Of a DNA stretch of 64,000 bases, positions 1,957 to 16,090 are shown piece after piece. Under the pieces are notes generated by a model. It made no database searches, was not told the origin of the DNA, and was given only the letters and a program-made list of their open reading frames with translations. How positions within the stretch are numbered: position 1 is the stretch's first letter; each line of letters begins with the position of its first letter. Made by a program: the position numbers and the translations under genes. This DNA comes from Candidatus Bathyarchaeota archaeon (GTDB lineage: Archaea; Thermoproteota; Bathyarchaeia; Bathyarchaeales; Bathycorpusculaceae), in NCBI GenBank assembly GCA_963767735.1, contig CAVYES010000005.1:256001-320000 (forward strand). The letters run 5' to 3'.

Positions 1957-3285
1957 ATGACGGACATAATAATTAAGAAAACTGAACGGTTAAACGGCGA
2001 GGTTTGTGCTCCTCCATCAAAATCTTACACACAGAGAATAGTCATAACGGCTGCTTTATCTGAAGGGGTTTCCAAAGTGTCAAATCCGCTTTTATCGGAA
2101 GACACCCAAGCAACCGTGCGCGCTATCACCGCTTTAGGTGCAAACATGGCAAGAAGTGAAGGCTGCTGGACCATCACGGGAGCAAACCCGCTTATAAATG
2201 CTAAAGCGCCTGTTGACTGCGGTGAATCCGGCGCCACGTTACGTTTCATGATGCCTGTGGCAGCTCTAGCACCTGACCCATCAACCCTGATTTTTAATGG
2301 TTCTCTTGATCGCAGACCCATCGAGCCTTTGCTTAAAAGCCTTGATGAACTCGGAGCCAAAGCTTGCACCAAAAAAATTCGCGTCCAAGAAAACGGAAAA
2401 GAAAAAACGAAAGATGCCGTTTTAGTTGAAGGCGGAGGCATCTTGGGCGGGGAGACCTCTATTGCTGGAGATGTTAGTTCTCAGTTCATTTCTGGATTAA
2501 TGTTCGCGTGCCCAATGGCAAAAGTGGATACAGAAGTCACTATAACAACTCCGCTTGAGTCCTCGGATTACGTTAAAATGACTTGGGATGTACTTGCAAA
2601 GCATGAAATTCAACTTGAAGTTCATGATAACTTTAAACGCATAAAGATTCCAGCTAATCAAACGTATAAGCCCCAAGACTTACGGGTGCCCGGAGATTTT
2701 TCTTCAGCTGCCTTTCTCCTCTCTGCCGCGGCAATAACCAGCTCTAAGGTTCAGATAAACAATCTTGAATACAAAACTGTTCAAGGTGACAAGGCAATTC
2801 TGGGAATCCTCAAGCAAATGGGAATTGAGGGAAAAGTATGCCAAAGCAGCGTTGAAATAAACGGAACCGGATGTCCGCTTGAACCTCTCAATGTTGATGC
2901 AAGAAATATTCCAGACCTAGTTCCCGCCTGTGCCGCCTTAGCATGTTACGCTAAGGGCACATCCAAAATCACTGGTGCCCAAAGGCTCAAACTTAAAGAG
3001 TCAGATAGGTTGAACTCGCTTTATCTTGAGCTGAGAAAGATGGGTGCAAAAATAAAGGTAGATGCAACCAGCTTAACCATAGATGGCCCCTGCGCCCTGC
3101 ATGGCGCCGTGATTAATCCACACAACGATCACCGAATCGCGATGGCTTGTGCGGTTGCAGCTTTAGGCGCAGAAGGGCAAACTACTATTCAAAATGCCGA
3201 GTGCGTTAGAAAGTCTTATCCGCAGTTCTTCACTCATTTAAAGCAAATAGGAGCTGAAATTGTTGGCGGGAAATTCGATTGGTAA
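1957..3285 (+). CDS. aroA: EPSP synthase (3-phosphoshikimate 1-carboxyvinyltransferase)
   Basis: PPSKS, GESGATLR, SSQFISG, KESDR, DHRIAM, KSYP motifs. Confidence 0.96.
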   Translation: MTDIIIKKTERLNGEVCAPPSKSYTQRIVITAALSEGVSKVSNPLLSEDTQATVRAITALGANMARSEGCWTITGANPLINAKAPVDCGESGATLRFMMPVAALAPDPSTLIFNGSLDRRPIEPLLKSLDELGAKACTKKIRVQENGKEKTKDAVLVEGGGILGGETSIAGDVSSQFISGLMFACPMAKVDTEVTITTPLESSDYVKMTWDVLAKHEIQLEVHDNFKRIKIPANQTYKPQDLRVPGDFSSAAFLLSAAAITSSKVQINNLEYKTVQGDKAILGILKQMGIEGKVCQSSVEINGTGCPLEPLNVDARNIPDLVPACAALACYAKGTSKITGAQRLKLKESDRLNSLYLELRKMGAKIKVDATSLTIDGPCALHGAVINPHNDHRIAMACAVAALGAEGQTTIQNAECVRKSYPQFFTHLKQIGAEIVGGKFDW

Positions 3286-6614: not shown

Positions 6615-7427
6615 TTAAGCCGCTTTCGGGTAAGAACCCAATATCCTAACGAATATCGCATATTTCTCTAATGCTTTCAACGCTTCTGCACATTGAGGTT
6701 CGGTTCGATGTCCCTCAAAATCAAGGTAAAAATTGTATTCCCACGCCGTCTTCTTTGTGGGTCTTGATTCAATTTTGGTCAAGTTAATGTTTCGCTTAGC
6801 AAATTCTCCGAGTGCATGGTAGAGTGAGCCTGGCTCGTGTTTTGCTGAGAAAATTATAGATGTTTTGTCTTTTCCTGTAGGAGGAGAATCTTCAGTTGAT
6901 AACACAAAGAAGCGGGTATAGTTCTCAGGGTTGTCCGCGATGTCTTCTGCGAGAATGCTCATGCCGTAGAGGTCGGCTGCTCTTTCGCTTGCAATCGCCG
7001 CAGCATTCTTTAAGCTTTTTTCTTTGAGCATCTTGACGCTGCCAGCCGTGTCATAGGTGGGTATGAGTTCGCGTCCAAACTCCTCCAAGAAACTTCGGCA
7101 CTGCGCCAGCGCCTGCGGATGGGAGTAAACAACCTTGATGTCTGCTAAGGCGGTGCCTGGGTTTGCGATGAGGCAATGCTCGATTTTCACGATGACTTCC
7201 CCGCACACTTTCAAATCGTACTTCAGGAAGAGGTCGTAGTTTTGGGTTACGCTGCCTTCTAAGCTGTTTTCAACGGGGACGACGCCGAACCTGGACTCCT
7301 GTGTGCAGACCCTGTCGAAAACGTCTTTGAAGTCCTTGCAGGGGTTAACTTCTGTTTTGGCTCCAAAGAATTGAAAGACTGCGCTTTCGCTGTAAGCGCC
7401 CCGTTCGCCTTGGAAGGCTACTTTCAC
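6615..7427 (-). CDS. pheA: prephenate dehydratase with ACT domain
   Basis: FQGERGAYS, PVENSLEG, SHPQALAQC, NYTRF, TKIESRP. Confidence 0.96.
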   Translation of the reverse strand: MKVAFQGERGAYSESAVFQFFGAKTEVNPCKDFKDVFDRVCTQESRFGVVPVENSLEGSVTQNYDLFLKYDLKVCGEVIVKIEHCLIANPGTALADIKVVYSHPQALAQCRSFLEEFGRELIPTYDTAGSVKMLKEKSLKNAAAIASERAADLYGMSILAEDIADNPENYTRFFVLSTEDSPPTGKDKTSIIFSAKHEPGSLYHALGEFAKRNINLTKIESRPTKKTAWEYNFYLDFEGHRTEPQCAEALKALEKYAIFVRILGSYPKAA

Positions 7428-8941
7428 TTTTTGTTCCCTCGATTCTTAATCAAGAGTTTGTTTATACCATTTATCATTGCTTCAACACTAGCCATAACGA
7501 TATCTTCTCTTGCTGCGCGTGCGGAAACGATGTTGCCTTTTTCATCCTCAACTTTAATGACAACTTCTGCCACGGCGTTTGAGCCGCCCGTTATTGCTTC
7601 AAGCCGGTACTCTCTGAGCCGTATGTTTTCTAGATTATTGGTTATTTTTTGGATGGCTTTCAGTACGGCGTCAACTGGGCCTACGCCTGTTTCTGCTGCA
7701 ACGTATTCTTTTCCATCTAAAACGAGCCTTACTGAAGCGGTTGGAATAACTTTTATGCCCGTTATAACGGCTAAGTCACTTAAGTCAACGATTTTTTCTT
7801 CCCCTATCACTTCACCCATAACTGCTGAAGTTAACGCAAATAAATCAGCGTCAGTCACCATCTTACCCTTATCACCTAACTCTTTGACACGTTGAACAAT
7901 TTCCTGCAGCTGCTGTTCAGTTGGGTGGATGCCTATCTCTTCCAGTTCAGCTTTTACGCCGCGCGTACCAGCTAGTTTTCCTGCAACTAATTTTCTTGTG
8001 CGTCCCACTAACTCCGGATTTATCGGCTCGAAGGTTAATGGTTTCTCCGTTACTCCCCTCGTGTGAATGCCTGATTCATGGGCAAAAGCGTTTTCTCCTA
8101 CAATGGCCTTGTTAGCTTGCACATTTATACCGGTCAACGATGAAACCAATCTGGAAGTGCCGTATAATAACCGTGAGTTTACACCTGTCTTGTACTTGTA
8201 AATCAGATGTAAAGCCATAACTACTTCTTCAAGTGAAGCGTTCCCAGCGCGCTCACCTAACCCGTTGACAGCAACGTGCACCTGATCGGCGCCAGCTTCG
8301 ACTGCGGCTAAGGAGTTTGCAACGGCTAAACCGAAATCGTCATGGCAATGCGTGCTAATGGGAACGTTAACTACAGTTTTTAGTTCTTCAATGAGTTTGA
8401 TTGTTGTTTTCGGAATCATTATGCCTACGGTGTCAGGAACGTTTAGTATGTCCATTCCTGCTTTCTCTGCTGCTTGGCAAACTTGCTTTAAAAAGGGCAT
8501 TTCTGAGCGCGTGGCGTCCATTGGTGAAAACTCGCATTTGAAACCATGCTTCTTAACATACTCAACAGATTCCACGGTTGAAGACAACACCTGTTCAGGC
8601 GTTAAGTTCACGGCGTACCTCATCTGCACAAGCGAAGTTGGAATAAAAACGTGAATTAAGTCAACGTCGCAGTCAATTGCAGCGTCAATATCGCCTTTTG
8701 TTGCACGCGTCAAAGCGCAGATTTCTGGTTCTAACCCAGCTTTAGCAATCTCCTTGACAACTTTTTTTTCGCCCTCAGAAGAGCTTGGAAAACCGGCTTC
8801 GATAACGTCGACGCCTAGCTTGCTTAATTGACTTGCAATCTCAATCTTATCGTCTGCAGTTAAAGTAACGCCGGGTGTTTGCTCGCCATCTCTTAGTGTA
8901 GTGTCAAAAATACGGATACGTTTTGAAGTTTTATCGTTCAT
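7424..8941 (-). CDS. leuA: 2-isopropylmalate synthase (LeuA/CimA family)
   Basis: DTTLRDGEQ, HCHDDFG, GLGERAGN, AHESGIH and C-terminal regulatory domain; citramalate synthase activity not excluded. Confidence 0.85.
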   Translation of the reverse strand: MNDKTSKRIRIFDTTLRDGEQTPGVTLTADDKIEIASQLSKLGVDVIEAGFPSSSEGEKKVVKEIAKAGLEPEICALTRATKGDIDAAIDCDVDLIHVFIPTSLVQMRYAVNLTPEQVLSSTVESVEYVKKHGFKCEFSPMDATRSEMPFLKQVCQAAEKAGMDILNVPDTVGIMIPKTTIKLIEELKTVVNVPISTHCHDDFGLAVANSLAAVEAGADQVHVAVNGLGERAGNASLEEVVMALHLIYKYKTGVNSRLLYGTSRLVSSLTGINVQANKAIVGENAFAHESGIHTRGVTEKPLTFEPINPELVGRTRKLVAGKLAGTRGVKAELEEIGIHPTEQQLQEIVQRVKELGDKGKMVTDADLFALTSAVMGEVIGEEKIVDLSDLAVITGIKVIPTASVRLVLDGKEYVAAETGVGPVDAVLKAIQKITNNLENIRLREYRLEAITGGSNAVAEVVIKVEDEKGNIVSARAAREDIVMASVEAMINGINKLLIKNRGNKK

Positions 8942-8945
8942 TTTT

Positions 8946-9983
8946 TCAACCAGTTTTCACTGTTAAGGCTGCAGCAATGGCTTCTGCCATCCCCACGGTC
9001 GTGGCGTTGCCGCCGCAGTCTGGAACAGTTTGACCGTTACGTAACGCGTATACTACCCCATTCTCTATTGCAGCGCCTGCTTTGATGCATTTTTTGTCGC
9101 TGTATTTTTCGCCGAGCCACTCCAGCATCATCTTCGCGGAAAGTATCATGGAGATTGGGTTTGCGGTGTGTTTTCCTGCTCTGTTTGGTGCTGAACCGTG
9201 GATAGGTTCGAAGAGTGCAAAGTTGTCGCCTATGTTTGCGCCTGGCGCCATACCCAACCCGCCGATAAGTTGGGCTGCTTCGTCTGAGAGGATGTCGCCG
9301 AACATGTTGCAGGTGCAGAAGACATCGAATTCTTGGGGCTCTTTTATCAAACGCATAGATGCTGCGTCAACGTATAACTCGTTGAAGGCGATGTCTGGGT
9401 ACTGTTTTGCCGTTTCGCGGCATATGCTGGCGAATAAACCGTCGGTTACGCGCATAACGTTGGCTTTGTGTATGGCGGTTACTTTCTTTTTGCCATTTCG
9501 CAGACGTGCGATTTCGAAGGCTTTCTTGGCTATGCGCTCACAATTTGCTCTTGTGATGATTCTCATGCATATGGTTGTGTCGTTGCCTACGGTGAATTCT
9601 AAGCCCTTGTAAACATCCTCAGTGTTCTCTCTAACAAACATCATATCTATGTCAGGTCGAGCCACAGGAACGTTAGGATAAGCTTTCAACGGACGCAAAT
9701 TGGCGTACAAATCGAACATCAGTCTGAGTTTAACTATGACGTCGGCTGCGGTTTCGCCTACGGGTCCCTTTAGGCAAGCGTGGGATTCTTTGATTTTTTG
9801 CACTGTGTCTTCGGGTAATGCGGCGCCTCTTTTAGCTAAGGTTGCGTCGCCCGCTTCAGCCTCAATAATTTTGAGGTTTAATCCGAATTTTTTCTGTGCT
9901 GAGTCTAGAACTTTTAGGGTAGCTTCGGTTAATTCTGGTCCGATGCCGTCGCCTGGGATTAGGGATATTTTGTATTCTGTCAT
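8946..9983 (-). CDS. leuB: 3-isopropylmalate dehydrogenase family
   Basis: PGDGIGPE, RENTE, NMFGDILSD, FEPIHGSAP; leu operon context. Confidence 0.85.
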   Translation of the reverse strand: MTEYKISLIPGDGIGPELTEATLKVLDSAQKKFGLNLKIIEAEAGDATLAKRGAALPEDTVQKIKESHACLKGPVGETAADVIVKLRLMFDLYANLRPLKAYPNVPVARPDIDMMFVRENTEDVYKGLEFTVGNDTTICMRIITRANCERIAKKAFEIARLRNGKKKVTAIHKANVMRVTDGLFASICRETAKQYPDIAFNELYVDAASMRLIKEPQEFDVFCTCNMFGDILSDEAAQLIGGLGMAPGANIGDNFALFEPIHGSAPNRAGKHTANPISMILSAKMMLEWLGEKYSDKKCIKAGAAIENGVVYALRNGQTVPDCGGNATTVGMAEAIAAALTVKTG

Positions 9984-10484
9984 TTTTTGTTTAGTCTCCT
10001 TCTCAGGTTTTCGATTAATCCGCCATCTGCTAATATTTCAATTATGAATGGTGGTAGCTTGTCTACTTGAAAGCTTTTTGCCTTTTGAAATGTTTTCTAT
10101 CTTGCCAGCTTCAACATCCACGGCTATTTCGTCACCTGTTTCAACAGCAGCCGATATGCCTTCGCATTCGATTACTGGTAAACCGATGTTAATCGCGTTT
10201 CGGAAGAAAATCCGAGCGAAAGATTCTGCTAACACGCATTTTACGCCTGCGTACTTTAGGGCTAGTGGCGCTTGTTCTCGGCTTGAGCCGCATCCGAAGT
10301 TTTTGCCGCCTACTACGATTACGCCTTTTTTTGCTTTTTCAGGAAAAGCTGGGTCTAAGCTTTCCAGGGCATGTTTTGCTAACTCGTAAGGGTCAACTAA
10401 TACCAGGTATTTTCCAGGCAGAATAACGTCTGTGTCAATGTTGTTTCCGAATTTTATCGCTGGACCTTTAATTTTCATATTCAT
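9980..10484 (-). CDS. leuD: 3-isopropylmalate dehydratase small subunit (frameshift near 10075)
   Basis: NIDTDVILP, NFGCGSSREQA; the typical C-terminus LPPFIIEILADGGL continues in another frame after an A5 run and ends at a TGA overlapping the leuB ATG. Confidence 0.9.
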
Positions 10485-11749
10485 GCTTTTGCCTCCAGTT
10501 TTCTGGGGTCAGTGATTTTGCCTGTGACTGCTGAAGCAGCTACCGTTGCTGGAGAAGCTAAGTATACGCTGGCTTGGGTGCTGCCCATTCTTCCAATAAA
10601 GTTCCTGTTTGAAGTGCTTACGCAAACTTCGTCTGCTGCTAATAATCCTATGTGACCGCCTAAGCATGGACCGCATGCCGAACCGCAAACTATTGCGCCT
10701 GCATCAGTGAAGATTTCCAATAAGCCTTCGTTTAACGCTTGCTTGTAAACTTCTTGGGAAGCTGGAATCACAAGTGCCCTAACATTGTCTTTTACGCGTT
10801 TGCCCTTTAGGATTTGAGCGGCTAAGCGTAAATCTTCGATTCTGCCGTTGGTGCATGAACCAATAAACGCCTGCTCGATTGGAACGTTGCCTGCTTCTGA
10901 AATTGGCTTAACATTGTCAACCGATGATGGGCATGCTATTTGCGGCTCCATCTTTGAGACGTCAAATTCCACTGTCCGCTCGTAAACTGCGTCTTTGTCG
11001 CTTTTCAACGATTCAAAGTTGGGTAATGCTTTGACTCTGCCTTCTAGGAACTTGCGGGTTGTTTCGTCAGGTTCGATGATGCCGTTTTTGGCGCCCATTT
11101 CCACAGCCATATTGCACAGCGTCATTCTTCCCGCTATGCTCATGCTTTTTATTGTTGGACCCGTGAATTCAGTGCTTTTGTATGTTGCGCCGTCAACGCC
11201 CATTCGTCCGATTATTGATAAGATTAGGTCTTTTGGTGTAACGTACTTTTGAAATTGCCCAGTCACGTTTATTTTAATCGCTTCCGGCACTTTTAGCCAA
11301 ATTTTTCCAGTAGCAAAGACTGCTGCTGCTTCGGTTGAGCCTATTCCTGTTGCGAAAGCGCCGAAGGCTCCGTACGTGCAAGTATGTGAATCAGCGCCTA
11401 CGATTACTGTTCCAGGAACTACATGCCCTTTCTCCGGCATAACTTGGTGGCAGATTCCGCCTCTGCCTATGTCATATATGCGTATTTTTTGGTCTTTGGC
11501 GAATTGACGCATGGTCTTGTGCAGTTCTGCCGCTTTAACGGACTCAGCCGGCACCTGATGGTCCAGAATCACCACTGCTTTTTGGTTATCCCAAACTTTT
11601 TGTACGCCTATTTTTTTGAAGGCTTCAACGGCTAAAGGTCCAGTTAAATCATGCACCATTATCATGTCTACGTTTGCATCCACGATTTCTCCTGGGTGCA
11701 CAACTTTTTTTCCTGAAGCTTTAGCCAAGATTTTTTCTGTAATGTTCAT
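10481..11749 (-). CDS. leuC: 3-isopropylmalate dehydratase large subunit
   Basis: GICHQ, GADSHTCTYG, FIGSCTNGR, CGPCLG, STSNRNF. Confidence 0.93.
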   Translation of the reverse strand: MNITEKILAKASGKKVVHPGEIVDANVDMIMVHDLTGPLAVEAFKKIGVQKVWDNQKAVVILDHQVPAESVKAAELHKTMRQFAKDQKIRIYDIGRGGICHQVMPEKGHVVPGTVIVGADSHTCTYGAFGAFATGIGSTEAAAVFATGKIWLKVPEAIKINVTGQFQKYVTPKDLILSIIGRMGVDGATYKSTEFTGPTIKSMSIAGRMTLCNMAVEMGAKNGIIEPDETTRKFLEGRVKALPNFESLKSDKDAVYERTVEFDVSKMEPQIACPSSVDNVKPISEAGNVPIEQAFIGSCTNGRIEDLRLAAQILKGKRVKDNVRALVIPASQEVYKQALNEGLLEIFTDAGAIVCGSACGPCLGGHIGLLAADEVCVSTSNRNFIGRMGSTQASVYLASPATVAASAVTGKITDPRKLEAKA

Positions 11750-11857
11750 GTTTTTTTCTCTTCTTTTACAATTAACTGTTATTTTTGATTAATCTGCCGA
11801 GGCGGTTTCTCATTTTTGAGAAACGGAAAGTTAAGGGTTTCCGTTCGGAAAGACGAT

Positions 11858-12370
11858 TTATTCGTCTATTCTTACCGATTTTGCTCCTCTTGCCAATGCT
11901 GTTATGCCTGTTCTTGCAAGTTCAATGACGCCCGTTGCTTTCATCAAGTTTAGGAACGCATCAAGCTTATCAGGTGTTCCTGTGATTTCCACGGTTAAAC
12001 TGTCAGTGGAAACGTCAATGATTCGTCCTCGGAAGACTTCTACGCAGTTGATAATGTCAGAGCGATCTTTCGCTGTTGGAGAGTTAACTTTTATCAAAGC
12101 CAGCTCACGCATTACATAATTTCCCGGCTCCAGTTCCTCGACTTTAAGCACATCGATAAGTTTTGCGACTTGCTTGACGACTTGGATGATTGTTTTTTCA
12201 TCCTCGTTGACTGTTATTGTCATGCGCGCGATGTCTTTCCTTTCGCTCGGGCCGACAGTGATGCTTTCAATGTTAAAGTTTCTACGTCGGAACAGGTTTG
12301 AAACGCCGAAGAGCACACCTGGCTTGTTTTCGACAAGTACCGAAATTATTTTGGTTCTTCCAGCTTCCAT
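11858..12370 (-). CDS. ilvN: acetolactate synthase small (regulatory) subunit
   Basis: LVENKPGVL..F.RR.FNIESITVG; RELALIKV; ELARTG. Confidence 0.95.
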   Translation of the reverse strand: MEAGRTKIISVLVENKPGVLFGVSNLFRRRNFNIESITVGPSERKDIARMTITVNEDEKTIIQVVKQVAKLIDVLKVEELEPGNYVMRELALIKVNSPTAKDRSDIINCVEVFRGRIIDVSTDSLTVEITGTPDKLDAFLNLMKATGVIELARTGITALARGAKSVRIDE

Positions 12371-14097
12371 TAGTAGTCACCTCTCTGCTGTGGTAAACCG
12401 CAACCTGGCGGCACAAAGGGGACAACATCATGCTCCGAGCCTATAGGCACATCGATCACCGTTGTAACCTTACTGTTCAGTGCTGTCTTAACTGCTTTTT
12501 GGAATTCCTCCATTGATGTCGCTCGCAATCCCTGCGCCCCGTAAGCTTCTGCCAGCTTGACGAAATCTGGTGTTTTACCCAAGTGAACTGCCATGTAACG
12601 TCGTTTGTAGAGCATTCTTTGCCACTGAGCAACCATGCCCAGCACCGAATTGTTCAGCACTATAACGGTGACGGGAATCTTTTCCGTAACGGAGCATGCA
12701 AGTTCCTGCTCGCTCATTATGAAACTGCCGTCGCCTGCTATGTCAACGACTGGTCTATCTGGGCATGCGACTTTTGCTCCGATTGCAGCTGGAAAGCCAA
12801 AACCCATGGTTCCTAAGCCTCCTGAACTGATGAAGGATCGAGGCTTCAGAGCTTGGAAATAAAGCGCTGACCACATCTGGTTTTGCCCAACTTCCGTAGT
12901 TACTATCGCGTTTTCAGGCAGCAGCTTCCTTAACTCCATCAGCAACGCTTTCGGAACTATGTCTCTGGGTCTATCCTTCAGCAGGGGACTCAGCTGTTCT
13001 TTTGCTTCTTTAACCCGCTTTGCCCAAGCATTGCCTTCACTCTTATGCAGTTTATCGCTTAAGGCGGCAAGCAAAAGCTTCAAGGCTGCTTTGGCGTCGC
13101 CGACTATGGGCACATCAACCTCAATGTTCTTGCCGATTTCTGCTTCATCAATGTCTATGTGGATTTTTTTAGCTTCCCTCGCAAAAGTGTCCAAATTTGC
13201 TGTTGCGCGGTCAGAGAATCTTGTTCCCACGGCCAGTAGCACATCGGCTTCGCCTAGCAATTTGTTCGCCGCCGGGTTTCCATGCATTCCTATGCTTCCT
13301 ACCGACAGGGGATGCCCTTCGGGGAACGAGCCTTTGCCCATGAATGTTGTGGCGACTGGCGCCATCAACAGGTCAGACATCTGCATGATTTCGTCTGAAG
13401 CACTCGAGATTATGACTCCTCCGCCTGAAAGAATCAGCGGGCTCTCCGCTTTCGCAAGCAAACTGGCGGCTTCACTTATCTTAGTTAAGTCTATCTCGAT
13501 CATAGATTTGTAGCCTCTAGCTTCGATCTTATCAGTTACCTCCACTTCGCCAATATCTGACTGTACATTTTTGGGTAAGTCAATCAGAACTGGCCCTGGC
13601 CTGCCAGTGGACGCTATGTAGAACGCTGTATTGACGATTGTTGGAATTTCAGCAACTGTCCTGGGCTGAAAATTGTATTTGGTGATTGGGGTTGTAATGC
13701 CAATTATGTCGGCTTCTTGGAAAGCGTCCTTGCCGATAAAGTATGACGTGTTAATACCTGAGGACGGAACCTGCCCCGTCAATGCTATTATAGGTGAAGA
13801 ATCCATGTACGCGTTCGCTATGCCTGTTACCAAGTTTGTAGCTCCAGGTCCTGAGGTTGCCATACAGACTCCTACCCGACCGCTGGCTCTGGCATAGCCT
13901 TCGGCTTCATGCGCTGCGCATTGCTCATGCCTAGCGAGGATGTGCCTGATTTTCTTATTGCCGCATAATGCATCGTACACAGGCAATATTGCTCCACCTA
14001 AGATGCCGAATATAACATCCACGTTTTGTTGTTCAAGGGATTCTAAGAGTGCTTTTGCACCAGACATTTTGGTCATTTCATTGCTTCTCCAATACAA
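12370..14097 (-). CDS. ilvB: acetolactate synthase large subunit (true start probably 14076 or 14067)
   Basis: ARHEQ, TSGPGATN, GRPGPV, GQNQMW, GDGSF ThDP motif. Confidence 0.96.
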   Translation of the reverse strand: MYWRSNEMTKMSGAKALLESLEQQNVDVIFGILGGAILPVYDALCGNKKIRHILARHEQCAAHEAEGYARASGRVGVCMATSGPGATNLVTGIANAYMDSSPIIALTGQVPSSGINTSYFIGKDAFQEADIIGITTPITKYNFQPRTVAEIPTIVNTAFYIASTGRPGPVLIDLPKNVQSDIGEVEVTDKIEARGYKSMIEIDLTKISEAASLLAKAESPLILSGGGVIISSASDEIMQMSDLLMAPVATTFMGKGSFPEGHPLSVGSIGMHGNPAANKLLGEADVLLAVGTRFSDRATANLDTFAREAKKIHIDIDEAEIGKNIEVDVPIVGDAKAALKLLLAALSDKLHKSEGNAWAKRVKEAKEQLSPLLKDRPRDIVPKALLMELRKLLPENAIVTTEVGQNQMWSALYFQALKPRSFISSGGLGTMGFGFPAAIGAKVACPDRPVVDIAGDGSFIMSEQELACSVTEKIPVTVIVLNNSVLGMVAQWQRMLYKRRYMAVHLGKTPDFVKLAEAYGAQGLRATSMEEFQKAVKTALNSKVTTVIDVPIGSEHDVVPFVPPGCGLPQQRGDY

Positions 14098-14171
14098 TTA
14101 ATAGACTCTCGTCTAAAAAGAAATTGTTTGAAAACTTTTCGATGGCTGTTTCAAAGGGTTCCCTATAAAAA

Positions 14172-14222
14172 TCAAAGAACAAGTACCCGAAGATTCCAGC
14201 TATTGAGGTGACGATCCCTCAT
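14172..14222 (-). promoter_or_regulatory. candidate leader peptide MRDRHLNSWNLRVLVL of the ilv-leu operon
   Basis: 17-codon ORF with GAGG 7 nt upstream; last six codons L-R-V-L-V-L; followed by a hairpin and T-tract before ilvB. Confidence 0.5.
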
Positions 14223-14292
14223 CTTAATTCCTCTTGAAACTCTACGTTCCTTAAATTATCTCATTGAACAAATAAAAAGTTTACGGTGTTAC

Positions 14293-15723
14293 CAGTAGAT
14301 GGAAAAGTAGTTTATGATTCTGATGCTTCATTCACATCGTAATCATAACAATTCCTCGATCGGAGCGTTCTAAGCAAGCTTTTTCATTGAACAGTTTTAT
14401 ATCCTGAAGGCTTGAATAGTTGAGAAAGTGGCGGAGTTTAGGGTCTGATCTACGCGATCGAGTCCCTCGAACTGCATCTGAGAATGCTTACCGTCGAGGT
14501 GGCCCTAACCCGCCAATAACAAAGCCTTCAAAATGCACAGCCAACCGCGTCAACGTCAAAACTGGCCTATCAAACGCCTTCTTCAAAGCCCTGCAGAGCA
14601 GAAAGTTAGCGTAATGCCAAACATTGTAGAGCAGCACAGAAGCCATCTGGTAGAGCAGCCTAAGCTTGTAGTTGGTGCTTGTAGTTTTAGCCTGAGCATT
14701 ATCCTGCACACGATAACCAGTCTCAATACCCCACCTCCGCCTGTACTCAGAAGGAATAGACGACGGCAACGCAAGAGCCAAAGACCTTGGAAGATTCGTT
14801 GCAAAACCAAAATAGAGATCACAAACAGTAAGCTTCTTCTTTTTCGGCAACTGCCCTGCTGGTCGTTTATAGATGTAGAGAGTGAAGCTGACGCTTTTTC
14901 TTTTATTGCCCAAAGTGAAACGTTTGGCTCGCTGCTTCTGGTCATAGTTCATCATTGCTTCTTTGACTGTGCCATTCTTAACCGCTGGAATGATGAAATA
15001 GACGCCTAAACTCTTGAGCATAGTAATGACGTCTACTGTGAAGAATGCGCGGTCAAGCAGCACTATACTGATGTGTACCCCTCTTGCCTTTGCTTCAAAG
15101 AGTAGTTTCTCTACAACCTGTGCTTTCTCGCTGAACTGGTTTACGGTAATAGAGTAGATTGCTAATCGTCTTCCGGCTTCAACAATATCCATGCTGGCAT
15201 ACGTGTAGCCCCAATTTGTTCCTCTCTCCTGTTTGCCGCCTATCACATTCTTAGCGTCTGGGTTTCCGTAGAACGGTTGCCTGGTATAATCAATTGCAAC
15301 CACTGCTTTGCGTCTGAAGATGCTATAGCATCGTAGGATGAGTAGAACCTGATCGTTTGCTTCTATAAGTGAGTCTCGAATCTGCTTCTCAGCTAAACGC
15401 TCTATTCTTCCTCTGAAGGTTCTTCCCGTGGGAACCTTGTTTGGCATAGCGCATTTTTCTGAGAGGTCTAATAAGCCGCCTTCAGCGTAGCTTTGGGAGA
15501 GCGAGAGTTGGATTAGACATTGGTTGATATGACTGCTGGTGTAGAGGCTGTTTTTGGCTGCTGGAAACTGCAGGTAGTTGTTGAGCAGGTTGGCTGTGAA
15601 CTTGAAGACTTTGCTTGAAACTTTTCGTTCTTTTGATTTACGCTTTATCGTCTGAGCGCAAGATCTCAATTGTTTGCACTAAAATACTAATATCAAACCC
15701 TTAAGCTACTTTTCCATCTACTG
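14293..15723 (-). mobile_element. ISH3-family (IS4-like DDE) insertion sequence, 1431 bp
   Basis: Perfect 18-bp TIRs CAGTAGATGGAAAAGTAG (14293-14310 and 15706-15723); 5-bp TSD GTTAC (14288-14292 and 15724-15728). Confidence 0.93.
14488..15669 (-). CDS. ISH3-family DDE transposase
   Basis: AIDYT..PFYG, LLDRAF, YRRRWGIETGYR motifs; lies inside the TIRs. Confidence 0.92.
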   Translation of the reverse strand: MRSCAQTIKRKSKERKVSSKVFKFTANLLNNYLQFPAAKNSLYTSSHINQCLIQLSLSQSYAEGGLLDLSEKCAMPNKVPTGRTFRGRIERLAEKQIRDSLIEANDQVLLILRCYSIFRRKAVVAIDYTRQPFYGNPDAKNVIGGKQERGTNWGYTYASMDIVEAGRRLAIYSITVNQFSEKAQVVEKLLFEAKARGVHISIVLLDRAFFTVDVITMLKSLGVYFIIPAVKNGTVKEAMMNYDQKQRAKRFTLGNKRKSVSFTLYIYKRPAGQLPKKKKLTVCDLYFGFATNLPRSLALALPSSIPSEYRRRWGIETGYRVQDNAQAKTTSTNYKLRLLYQMASVLLYNVWHYANFLLCRALKKAFDRPVLTLTRLAVHFEGFVIGGLGPPRR

Positions 15724-15904
15724 GTTACTCTCATTTGTTTACAACTTTTTGTTAAAAATTACCTCGCCAAAGCCAACCTACAACTTGATTTCCAAGAAGG
15801 AGAAATAATGACGACTACGAACATTGTTTTTCTCTGACTATCATTGGGTAGTTGATAAAAGCACTTATAACCTGCATTCTCTTTTTCCTTATCTGTGAAG
15901 AAGT

Positions 15905-16090
15905 ATGTGTGAATTTAACATAATCCTCAACGGACAAGTGCAATTCAAAGACGTTATTTACGTTAAGGTTGAAGGAGATAACGTGACAGTTAAGAATATT
16001 TTGGGTGAAGCTAAAGAATTTAAAAATTGCAAGATTATTGAGGTTGACGTTAACTCTACCAGGCTAGTTCTTGCTTCATTGAAACCTTAA
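15905..16090 (+). CDS. CooT-family small nickel-binding protein
   Basis: MCE start, DV..V.VEG..V...ILGE...I.EVD pattern, 61 aa. Confidence 0.75.
   Translation: MCEFNIILNGQVQFKDVIYVKVEGDNVTVKNILGEAKEFKNCKIIEVDVNSTRLVLASLKP

Follow-up and report, generated by a model that had tools for sequence, protein, structure and literature searches.

Our study of a 64,000-nucleotide stretch of a Candidatus Bathyarchaeota genome (contig CAVYES010000005.1, positions 256,001 to 320,000; the window hereafter) revealed two overlapping reading frames in the leader of ilvB, the first gene of an operon for branched-chain amino-acid (BCAA) synthesis. One is a short open reading frame (ORF) of 16 codons headed by a Shine–Dalgarno (SD) sequence; the other, shifted by +1, has no start codon of its own and stays open up to the start of ilvB. 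From comparison with relatives it is likely that this is a conserved, translated cis-regulatory leader of some kind, through which the ribosome probably adjusts the operon to the supply of amino acids. An earlier, sequence-only reading of this DNA had proposed an archaeal attenuator in which a Leu/Val leader peptide governs alternative hairpins. It overlooked the +1 frame, which points to translation-level control, or to translation-dependent completion of the transcript, and not to a hairpin attenuator. As to how such a leader might operate, we put forward, tentatively, a mechanism of frameshifting and translational coupling.

The leader lies on the minus strand. Its zero-frame ORF (14172..14222) consists of 16 codons and TGA (ATG AGG GAT CGT CAC CTC AAT AGC TGG AAT CTT CGG GTA CTT GTT CTT TGA), and translates to MRDRHLNSWNLRVLVL; as the sequence-only reading had described, five of the last six codons encode Leu or Val and CTT occurs three times. 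The SD sequence AGAGG (14230..14234) is situated 7 nucleotides (nt) ahead of the ATG at 14222, and further upstream is an archaeal-type promoter (14272..14287), made up of a B recognition element (BRE)-like ACCGTAAAC and the TATA box TTTTTAT (14278-14272). The TATA-like element and a GAGG had both been pointed out before, and both held up on comparison. TTTTTAT is invariant (alignment columns 23-29) and CCGTAAAC is conserved or similar in 5/5 aligned relatives, with no conserved TATA-like element nearer ilvB in the alignment of five sequences. An SD-like run is kept in all nine leaders of the RTGAGGGAT type, 6-9 nt upstream of the start, as GAGG or GGAGG in eight and as GGGGG in L006. Transcription would be expected to start about 25 nt past the TATA box, near 14250.

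The relatives were drawn from an IlvB scan of species-representative genomes, which gave 80 loci, 12 of them from Bathyarchaeia; the leader family was assessed in these 12 loci and the window, and the roughly 54 bacterial loci were covered by pattern search only. The nearest relatives by IlvB identity, L001 (93 %), L002 (85 %), L007 (82 %) and L006 (80 %), have the same BRE and TATA box, an SD and the same leader ORF as the window, their peptides being MRDCHLHSWNRRVLIL, MRDRHLNSWNRRVLIL, MRDCHLNSWDRRVLFL and (GTG)RDRHLNAVFVRRFVQSIL, respectively, each ended by a stop. More distant Bathyarchaeia (L004, L016, L014 and L015; IlvB identity 63-66 %) retain the SD and an ORF whose opening nine bases are unchanged, encoding MRDCVLEKHCFVHTPN, MRDNVLWRNSFIGELY, (GTG)RDSRVRRNRFLSR and (GTG)RDHWVLEGQKMGDRFIH. 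In pairwise comparisons among the window, L001, L002 and L007, the leader ORF is 84-96 % identical at the DNA level, compared to only 38-61 % for four-fold degenerate sites of ilvB, 44-79 % for the 5′ untranslated region and 51-77 % for the spacer that follows the ORF. The substitutions seen in the ORF are swaps between ATG and GTG starts and between TGA and TAA stops, two synonymous CTT to CTA changes in L007, and V/I/F at codon 15, all of which are compatible with translation. A length of exactly 16 codons is found in six of the eight ilvB-proximal ORFs of the RTGAGGGAT type, although their sequences diverge past codon 6. Judged on this conservation, the window's leader ORF is real, conserved and more than a product of chance, because start, SD and stop are all kept in relatives. 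The earlier caveat that chance might suffice was well placed for the window alone, which would not exclude it, and loses its force once the relatives are considered, where conservation is far above that of the neutral sites of ilvB.

The Leu/Val cluster fared less evenly as a candidate sensor. In the window's clade, branched-chain codons occupy kept positions, namely codon 6 and the final four, V-L-(V/I/F)-L, in 4/4 members. The sequence-only reading had asked whether relatives share a short ORF with clustered Leu, Val and Ile codons ahead of ilvB; the conserved, SD-led ORF was found, whereas the clustering is confined to the clade, distant members of the family having only 2-4 scattered BCAA codons. 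Leu11 is peculiar to the window, with Arg in L001, L002 and L007, and the conservation of widest range is that of the N-terminal M-R-D-x-x-[LV] core rather than of the Leu/Val tail. What remains of the earlier proposal of ribosomal BCAA sensing is a conserved SD-led ORF at BCAA operons, without support for its hairpin switch and terminator. Leaders of this family also look as if they contain repeats: two apparent in-frame copies of one motif, AGG-GAU-CGU-CAC-CUC and UGG-AAU-CGU-CGG-GUA-CUU, can be made out in the window's leader (14194-14218), copies are 18-42 nt apart across leaders and always by a multiple of three, and L050 has two complete mini-ORFs in tandem, with the junction TAA-ATG.

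Overlapping the leader ORF, the +1-frame ORF (14078..14218, minus strand) has 46 sense codons (GIVTSIAGIFGYLFFDFYREPFETAIEKFSNNFFLDESLLIVLEKQ) and a TGA. It begins directly after a UGA that overlaps the AUG (A-UGA-GGG-AUC...) and its own TGA, at 14080-14078, ends one base ahead of the ilvB ATG (caaTGAaATGacc). All 10 ilvB-proximal leaders have an open +1 frame, of 40-76 codons, and in nine of them it ends between 4 nt before and 20 nt after the first candidate start of ilvB, which is the juxtaposition of stop and start expected of translational coupling. The junction is TGA-a-ATG in the window, an ATGA overlap with the ilvB start in L001 (49 codons), a TTGA overlap in L002 (48 codons), TGA-gt-ATG in L007 (48 codons), TAAATG in L014 (59 codons), TAG-a-ATG in L003 (76 codons) and TGA-g-ATG in L050 (61 codons); in L004 (53 codons) and L016 (56 codons) the stop lies 20 nt into ilvB. 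Over the same stretch the other frames (0 and +2) have 1-7 stops each. In dinucleotide-preserving shuffles a +1 frame without stops arose with a probability of 0.04-0.18, depending on the leader; multiplied for six lineages (window, L004, L016, L014, L003 and L050), these probabilities come to approximately 6e-8, on an assumption of independence that is imperfect.

There is no conserved start codon in the +1 frame, and in L001 and L007 there is no ATG, GTG or TTG in it at all. Its peptides resemble each other only over the first residues, G-I-[VAT]-x-S, and have no Pfam match. No excess of third-position changes was detected (differences at codon positions 1/2/3 of 6/8/6, 11/15/7 and 12/14/9), and members of the window's clade differ by indels of 1 and 2 nt with the +1 frame still open. 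Openness that tolerates indels, without periodicity or conservation of the peptide, argues for selection on readability up to the ilvB start and not on the product. A conserved small protein was considered for this ORF and rejected for want of a Pfam match, of peptide conservation past five residues and of codon periodicity, and an N-terminal extension of IlvB was rejected on the grounds that the frame relative to ilvB varies among relatives. The window's spacer was also rejected as a decayed synthase stub, despite a 10-base match, CTTTTTAGAC, to the L007 synthase start; local alignment of four window-clade leaders with five synthase 5′ regions gave no significant similarity (20 comparisons, p = 0.04-0.97, uncorrected, with 300 Markov shuffles each).

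A family leader was found in all 12 Bathyarchaeia loci and the window, either at ilvB or at a LeuA/CimA-family synthase gene that heads the operon. The 9-mer [AG]TGAGGGAT has 14 occurrences in 1.25 Mb of searched sequence (both strands), nine of them leaders, and the pattern [AG]TGGGG-N6-TTT[AG]T[CT] has eight occurrences in all sequence searched, every one a leader. These counts show that the leader family is linked to BCAA genes across Bathyarchaeia. The second pattern belongs with a sister type of leader, the mini-ORF M-G-[YND]-x-F-[IV], which was found in the remaining Bathyarchaeia loci: ahead of ilvB in L003 and L050, and ahead of the operon-heading synthase in L004, L005, L007, L015 and L021. 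It is also present ahead of methanogen synthase genes, where it overlaps the synthase start, in two Methanothrix loci (L008, 1435-1464, and L009, 1493-1522; MNAWDRFIW and a stop) and in Methanoculleus (L075, 1508-1531; MSDRFIC and a stop). The two Methanothrix mini-ORFs are identical over 27 sense-codon bases, with differing flanks and a stop changed from TAA to TAG.

In four of the five Bathyarchaeia loci with this arrangement (L004, 1217-2755; L007, 588-2132; L015, 1439-2998; L021, 1455-3008), a full-length synthase of 512-519 amino acids is encoded without any in-frame ATG, GTG or TTG between the preceding stop and the catalytic motif DTTLRDGEQ, and the synthase of L005 (1433-3004) has a single in-frame ATG, located inside the mini-ORF; an ATG or GTG start is present in the methanogen genes (L008, L009 and L075). 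In 8/8 leader-bearing genes the synthase is the +1 frame of an AUG- or GUG-started mini-ORF, with a distance of 6-12 codons from the motif to DTT. Within the synthase frame GGN and AUY vary synonymously, a Ser/Phe swap in this frame corresponds to AUC/AUU Ile synonyms in the mini-ORF frame, and the Leu codon is UUA in 9/10 copies, as UUU-A of the other frame demands. On these substitution patterns, both overlapping frames of the sister leaders are under a constraint of their own. The dicodon UUU-AUY (Phe-Ile) is found in all eight synthase-type leaders, and in ilvB-type leaders a U-rich codon is followed by Val, Leu or Ile. NCBIfam places the upstream synthase only in the LeuA/CimA/homocitrate subfamily; that the Ile codon serves the Ile branch, with the synthase acting as a citramalate synthase, is a lead, in which case UUU-AUY would be an Ile-specific sensor. 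Start-less genes of this family are liable to be truncated by gene callers, and the first listed ORF of the L007 synthase begins at 747.

How the two types may be connected is illustrated by L003, where the mini-ORF MGYRFIEPLSS and its stop are followed by a decayed synthase 5′ stub, IKIFDTILKDGEQTPRVSS, ahead of ilvB (2777-3008). This stub (IKIFDTILKDGEQ) matches Pfam HMGL-like at E = 0.0028, and its frame is open for 76 codons with the stop 1 nt before an ilvB ATG. L003 thus illustrates how an ilvB-type leader can arise by synthase deletion, and in synthase-ilvB operons the synthase stop already adjoins the ilvB start.

The end of the window's leader ORF, GUA CUU GUU CUU UGA (Val-Leu-Val-Leu and the stop; 14172..14186, minus strand), offers CUU-GUU, GUU-CUU and CUU-UGA as candidate sensing and slipping sites. 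In 19/19 leader ORFs of the family an NUU or UUC codon is followed by a branched-chain codon or a stop: CUU-UGA in the window, L001 and L002, UUU-CUA in its place in L007, and UUU or UUC followed by a BCAA codon in other members. In several members the U-rich codon is preceded, at a distance of 2-6 nt, by a G-rich, SD-like run, with GGAGG 5 nt ahead of UUU/UUC in L016 and L014, GGGG 5-6 nt ahead of UUU in leaders of the M-G-Y type, and only CGGG, 2 nt ahead of the first CUU, in the window. In the section of a recoding review that treats bacterial genes for release factor 2 (RF2), CUU_U before UGA is given as the shift site and GG_GGG or GG_AGG, at 3-nt spacing, as the stimulator (PMC5009743).

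Under the mechanism we propose, ribosomes would start at the AUG at 14222, and those that stay in frame would terminate at 14172, approximately 95 nt before ilvB. A minority would slip by +1, and more would do so when charged Leu-, Val- or Ile-tRNAs are scarce and the ribosome pauses; with CUU or GUU occupying the P site and the A site waiting at a branched-chain codon or UGA, the P-site tRNA would have occasion to shift. Slipped ribosomes would then cross the spacer and terminate at the ilvB start, promoting ilvB translation by termination-reinitiation and by unmasking of its SD. Archaeal termination factors act on untranslated RNA, and slipped ribosomes would probably also keep RNA polymerase coupled across the U-rich spacer, so that a transcriptional component without a hairpin is possible. 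Slipping is taken as the ON direction because in synthase leaders the +1 frame is the enzyme itself. For the window we infer translation of either frame, the slip and its site, the sensing of BCAAs and the direction of the effect. The broader proposal is still more tentative than the mechanism itself: that in Bathyarchaeia, and with a related cassette in some methanogens, a programmed +1 frameshift senses amino-acid supply, the start-less frame being either a synthase or a spacer ORF that hands ribosomes on to ilvB.

A number of observations weigh against frameshifting and coupling. No single shift site is conserved across the family, the first motif of the window's clade has CAC before CUC, which is unable to re-pair, and the SD-like runs depart from the 3-nt spacing found in RF2 genes. 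Coupling is not obligatory, as ilvB has its own GGAG, and almost every motif copy has AUH as the second +1-frame codon (GUU in the second copy of L021), which could equally be a weak non-AUG start. Enrichment in BCAAs is modest, with Ile, Leu and Val (ILV) at 6/16 codons in the leader ORF compared to 24 % in the window's long ORFs, and the codons are not rare (CUU makes up 19 % of Leu codons and GUU 41 % of Val codons). Use of rare codons in the leader was accordingly rejected, CUU, GUU and GUA being ordinary codons here. The open +1 frame is unremarkable in the window alone (P = 0.059 for this frame and 0.18 for any frame), and the case for it depends on 12 relatives that are not fully independent of one another, an open frame being heritable. 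The open frame of L003 is in part a recent synthase stub, and the 40-codon frame of L006, the sole exception at the junction, stops 28 nt ahead of the ilvB ATG.

Classical transcription attenuation, as envisaged by the sequence-only reading, would have a ribosome stalled at the Leu/Val codons cause CCUUUGAAAC (14157-14148) to pair with the upstream GUUUCAAGAGG; without stalling, CCUUUGAAAC would pair with GUUUUCAAA (14135-14127) and polymerase would terminate at UUUCUUUUU. The pieces named for this switch do exist: CCTTTGAAAC (14157-14148), GTTTTCAAA (14135-14127) and the T-rich TTTCTTTTT (14123-14115) form a putative terminator region (14115..14157, minus strand) that lies within the +1 ORF, and the SD-covering segment GTTTCAAGAGG is present at 14240-14230. 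Folding gave a divided result. RNAalifold on five sequences (-11.4 kcal/mol, with no covariation bonus, +0.46) recovered the pairing of the SD AGAGG with CCUCU past the ORF in 5/5, and 80 % of the cells of this helix are paired, yet its covariation score was reached by 262/500 shuffles. The terminator helix, with 72.5 % of cells paired and three double-change cells, had a score that only 4/500 shuffles reached, in a test on only five sequences, one of which had served to define the helix; it is missing from the minimum free energy (MFE) fold, and a terminator scan returned no terminator-like hairpin on the minus strand. As had been cautioned, the stems are weak, and folding does not surpass that of dinucleotide shuffles (z = -0.46 for the whole leader; for the spacers, -1.08 in the window, +1.32 in L002, +1.05 in L001 and -0.31 in L007). 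Archaeal polymerases terminate at oligo-T, and hairpin-independent termination at the U5 runs right after the leader stop (14171-14167) and at 14119-14115 is thus conceivable; however, the T-run proposed as terminator is not conserved, T-runs being absent in L001 and short in L006. The antiterminator would, moreover, need to form its stem around the stalled ribosome, the model has no explanation for the open +1 frame, and no leader family of Rfam matches, with no hit at gathering score in the whole window and five matches at E = 0.32-9.2, far below gathering scores, in an E-value search of 13950-14400. A stable covarying structure or curated family, as would mark a riboswitch or T-box, was likewise not found. 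Two other archaeal ilvB leaders (L063 and L020, see below) look classical, which favours attenuation in principle; for the window the attenuation model as a whole is unlikely.

Two further explanations involve translation without a frameshift. If the +1 ORF were initiated at its second codon, AUC (14215-14213), a weak non-AUG start 5 nt past the strong AUG, the AUG mini-ORF would serve as decoy or gate; the +1 ORF would couple to ilvB or, in the sister leaders, be the synthase. Such competition between two starts is attractive in that the +1 frame begins G-I in 8/8 aligned ilvB leaders, AUH is kept at this position in nearly all copies and is never AUG, the overlapping zero-frame codon is NAU and not the genome-preferred NAC in all but one copy, and the methanogens L008, L009 and L075 start the same frame with ATG or GTG one or two codons upstream. 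It would nevertheless require an SD-to-AUC spacing of 14 nt and initiation at AUH, which to our knowledge is rare in archaea, and it gives no role to the 16-codon length, the UUU-AUY dicodon or the Ile-synonymous AUC/AUU variation, nor any obvious step for sensing amino acids; we hold it to be rather improbable. An explanation of about the same, low standing is that the zero-frame upstream ORF (uORF) works alone, with stalling at its final Val/Leu/Ile codons either covering or melting pyrimidine-rich RNA immediately past the stop, and so unmasking the ilvB SD in the manner of ermC/cat, or shielding the 5′ end from exonucleases, and with the open +1 frame incidental or serving another purpose. 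In the window's clade the regulatory codons do come last in the ORF, MFE folds pair the ilvB GGAG with GUUUUC in the window and L002 and with UUCUCC right past the stop in L001, and the last Leu codons of L063 pair with the ilvB SD. But the masking partner varies among relatives, any U/C-rich run pairs with a purine-rich SD, and the folds again do not exceed shuffles; the +1 frame open in six lineages and the start-less synthase genes would go unexplained.

A non-translated element, with the core AUGAGGGAUCGUCACCUC and the repeat GGAAUCGUC serving, at the level of DNA or RNA, as the target of a regulatory protein or as a small RNA switch and the ORFs as by-products, would explain why AGG-GAU is invariant in 9/9 leaders though Arg has six codons, why Leu6 is kept as CUC, only 13 % of Leu codons, and more generally why third positions are conserved beyond the need of peptide-level selection. 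It could also draw on a small hairpin, UGAGG-N8-CCUCA (14204..14221, minus strand), which spans the last two start-codon bases and the Leu6 codon CUC. This hairpin is near-invariant and appears in both the MFE fold and the RNAalifold structure, with 4/5 pairs unchanged in five sequences, no covariation, and its outermost U-A pair broken in L001 (U-C). Other features speak against it: a start and an SD-like run persist in 9/9 leaders through ATG/GTG swaps, stops change to stops, spacings of the motif copies are multiples of three, UUU-AUC becomes UUC-CUC in L014 with Phe and a BCAA preserved, and a frame stays open across a spacer that defies alignment between lineages. With no Rfam match or stable structure besides, this explanation is an unlikely one. 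Least credible of all, and in our view very improbable, is that the leader is chance or the decaying, functionless relic of a deleted synthase 5′ end. The deletion seen in L003, with its leader and HMGL-like stub, and the synthase stops that adjoin ilvB starts lend this some plausibility; neutral sites, however, diverge far more than the leader ORF, similarity between window-clade leaders and the 5′ regions of synthase genes did not reach significance, divergence and indels have left the +1 frame open, and L004 has an RTGAGGGAT-type leader before ilvB while retaining its synthase.

The leader precedes a set of genes, all on the minus strand and all identified from the ORF list, Pfam and NCBIfam. 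They are ilvB (14076-12370; Pfam TPP_enzyme_N/M/C and NCBIfam TIGR00118 at 745 bits), ilvN (12370-11858), leuC (11749-10481), leuD (10484-10038), leuB (9983-8946), a leuA-family synthase gene (8941-7424) and pheA (7427-6615), which encodes a prephenate dehydratase with PDT and ACT domains. The ribosome-binding region of ilvB (14074..14090) has GGAG at 14090-14087 and ATG at 14076-14074, and the +1 ORF reads across it. Gene spacing suggests that ilvBN-leuCDB-leuA-pheA (6615..14076) is one transcript served by the leader. With its 4-nt overlap with the end of the leuA-family gene, pheA seems to be part of the ilv-leu operon, and in the majority of the family's leaders the conserved P-site codon is one for Phe (UUU/UUC). 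Opposite the leader, the other strand contains only short, unconserved ORFs.

An insertion sequence (14288..15728, minus strand) adjoins the promoter, its end being 9 nt upstream of the ilvB TATA box. It is bounded by 37-nt terminal inverted repeats (14288-14324 and 15692-15728; 84 % complementary, 2 matches vs 0 expected) and carries a transposase gene (15669-14488, minus strand; 393 amino acids, DDE_Tnp_1, PF01609). The insertion sequence is a neighbour of the leader and no part of it. In the closest relatives, L001 and L002, the same intergenic region is uninterrupted, and upstream regulatory DNA of the ilvB promoter, if there is any, has been moved away by 1.44 kb in this genome. A CooT-family ORF of 61 amino acids (15905-16090, plus strand; PF10133, E = 1.2e-9) is divergent from ilvB; it is a neighbour in L001 and L002 also, and in the window the insertion sequence separates it from the ilvB promoter.

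Outside Bathyarchaeia, ILV-rich, ATG-started ORFs were found in the 330 nt before ilvB in 7/14 archaeal loci. These are L020 (2789-2893; ending in LLLSVLVILLIIIVQ and a stop, with a G/C hairpin and U-run after the ORF), L044 (about 2908-2976; MRGISLPVRTSILNVVRLVLLF and a stop), L063 (2884-2970; ending in GVVILVGIIVVLL and a stop), L067 (about 2897-2974), and L040, L048 and L061 (about 100-170 nt before ilvB; ending in PILVVLGVLVDLRILRP and a stop). In L063 the ORF is followed by AAAGGC-GUUCU-GCCUUU and U6, nested in the helix that pairs the last Leu codons with the ilvB SD (z = -1.94). The hosts of these leaders are DHVE2, Archaeoglobi and Thermoplasmata-like archaea. Among the other seven loci, ilvB directly follows a synthase gene in five, a contig end truncates one, and one, L036, is without a leader ORF. 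This distribution suggests that leader-peptide control of ilvB may be widespread in Archaea, and the ILV-rich leaders raise the prior for the window's element.

Control by amino-acid supply through such a leader is hardly documented in archaea. No account of archaeal ilv/leu leader control, or of frameshifting in these synthase genes, was found among the papers listed by full-text searches, which did not extend to subscription journals. The relevant passages of an archaeal ribosome profiling study mention uORFs in Haloferax and give no regulatory case (PMC7261190), an excerpt of the uORF4u paper states in general terms that uORFs regulate in archaea too (PMC10219788), and in the pertinent parts of two further papers archaea and attenuation are mentioned only in passing (PMC1262725, PMC13158618). 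The leader described here is a conserved, testable element in a major uncultured class of archaea, and its two-frame architecture with stop-start coupling suggests that starvation-induced frameshifting may be used as a sensor. If this is true, hungry-codon frameshifting would have its first natural role as a metabolic sensor, and archaea their first demonstrated leader mechanism that responds to amino acids.

In bacteria, control of amino-acid operons through sensing by the ribosome is textbook knowledge, and BCAA leader-peptide attenuators are known there from the ilvBN/ivbL, ilvGMEDA and leu leaders of E. coli and from Corynebacterium ilvBNC. Like these, the bathyarchaeal element is an SD-led short ORF on an ilv/leu leader with codons for the pathway's own products, and the ribosome is the presumed sensor. 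It is unlike them in having no terminator/antiterminator set, no conserved intrinsic terminator and no Rfam family, in its 2-5 regulatory codons, in its conserved N-terminal core, in a second frame that reaches the structural gene and in its archaeal host. Among the marks of a classical attenuator, then, the SD-led leader ORF is present, whereas alternative helices, an intrinsic terminator and a curated family were not found. In ermC and cat, which are examples of translational attenuation, as in the leaders considered here, the fate of a ribosome on a short ORF sets the output of an operon without a terminator switch. The same likeness extends to the cysteine-responsive polycysteine short ORFs of mycobacteria, as an account of these presents them (bioRxiv 10.1101/834739). 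Both of those systems, so far as the same account and the ermC/cat model go, are one-frame devices of unmasking or stalling, and neither has a start-less frame open to the next start.

The RF2 cassette, as outlined in the recoding review, is closer in layout (PMC5009743). It shares with our leaders a short zero-frame ORF with an early stop and a productive +1 frame, CUU_U before UGA ends the window's ORF, G-rich SD-like runs precede the U-rich codon in several members, and sensor and effector lie in one stretch. In the window, however, the product of the start-less +1 frame is a spacer peptide, the frame being a spacer ORF coupled to the next gene, with fusion to an enzyme confined to the sister leaders; decoding would be slow at a BCAA codon and not just at a stop, the SD-like runs are at 2-6 nt and not 3, and the site is not uniform. 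The same review describes hungry-codon frameshifting in starved E. coli, in which an empty A site lets the P-site tRNA slip, as an error process, says in its 2016 passage on functional hungry-codon trans-frame products that 'no examples are known', and in its part on archaea gives only a few frameshift cases (PMC5009743). Our proposal has in common with this process a slip at the codon of the scarce amino acid, and differs in that the slip would here be a selected regulatory device. Taken together, these comparisons suggest that the two-frame leader, which fails the defining tests of a classical attenuator and is RF2-like in layout only, resembles a leader-peptide sensor in the way that it would work.

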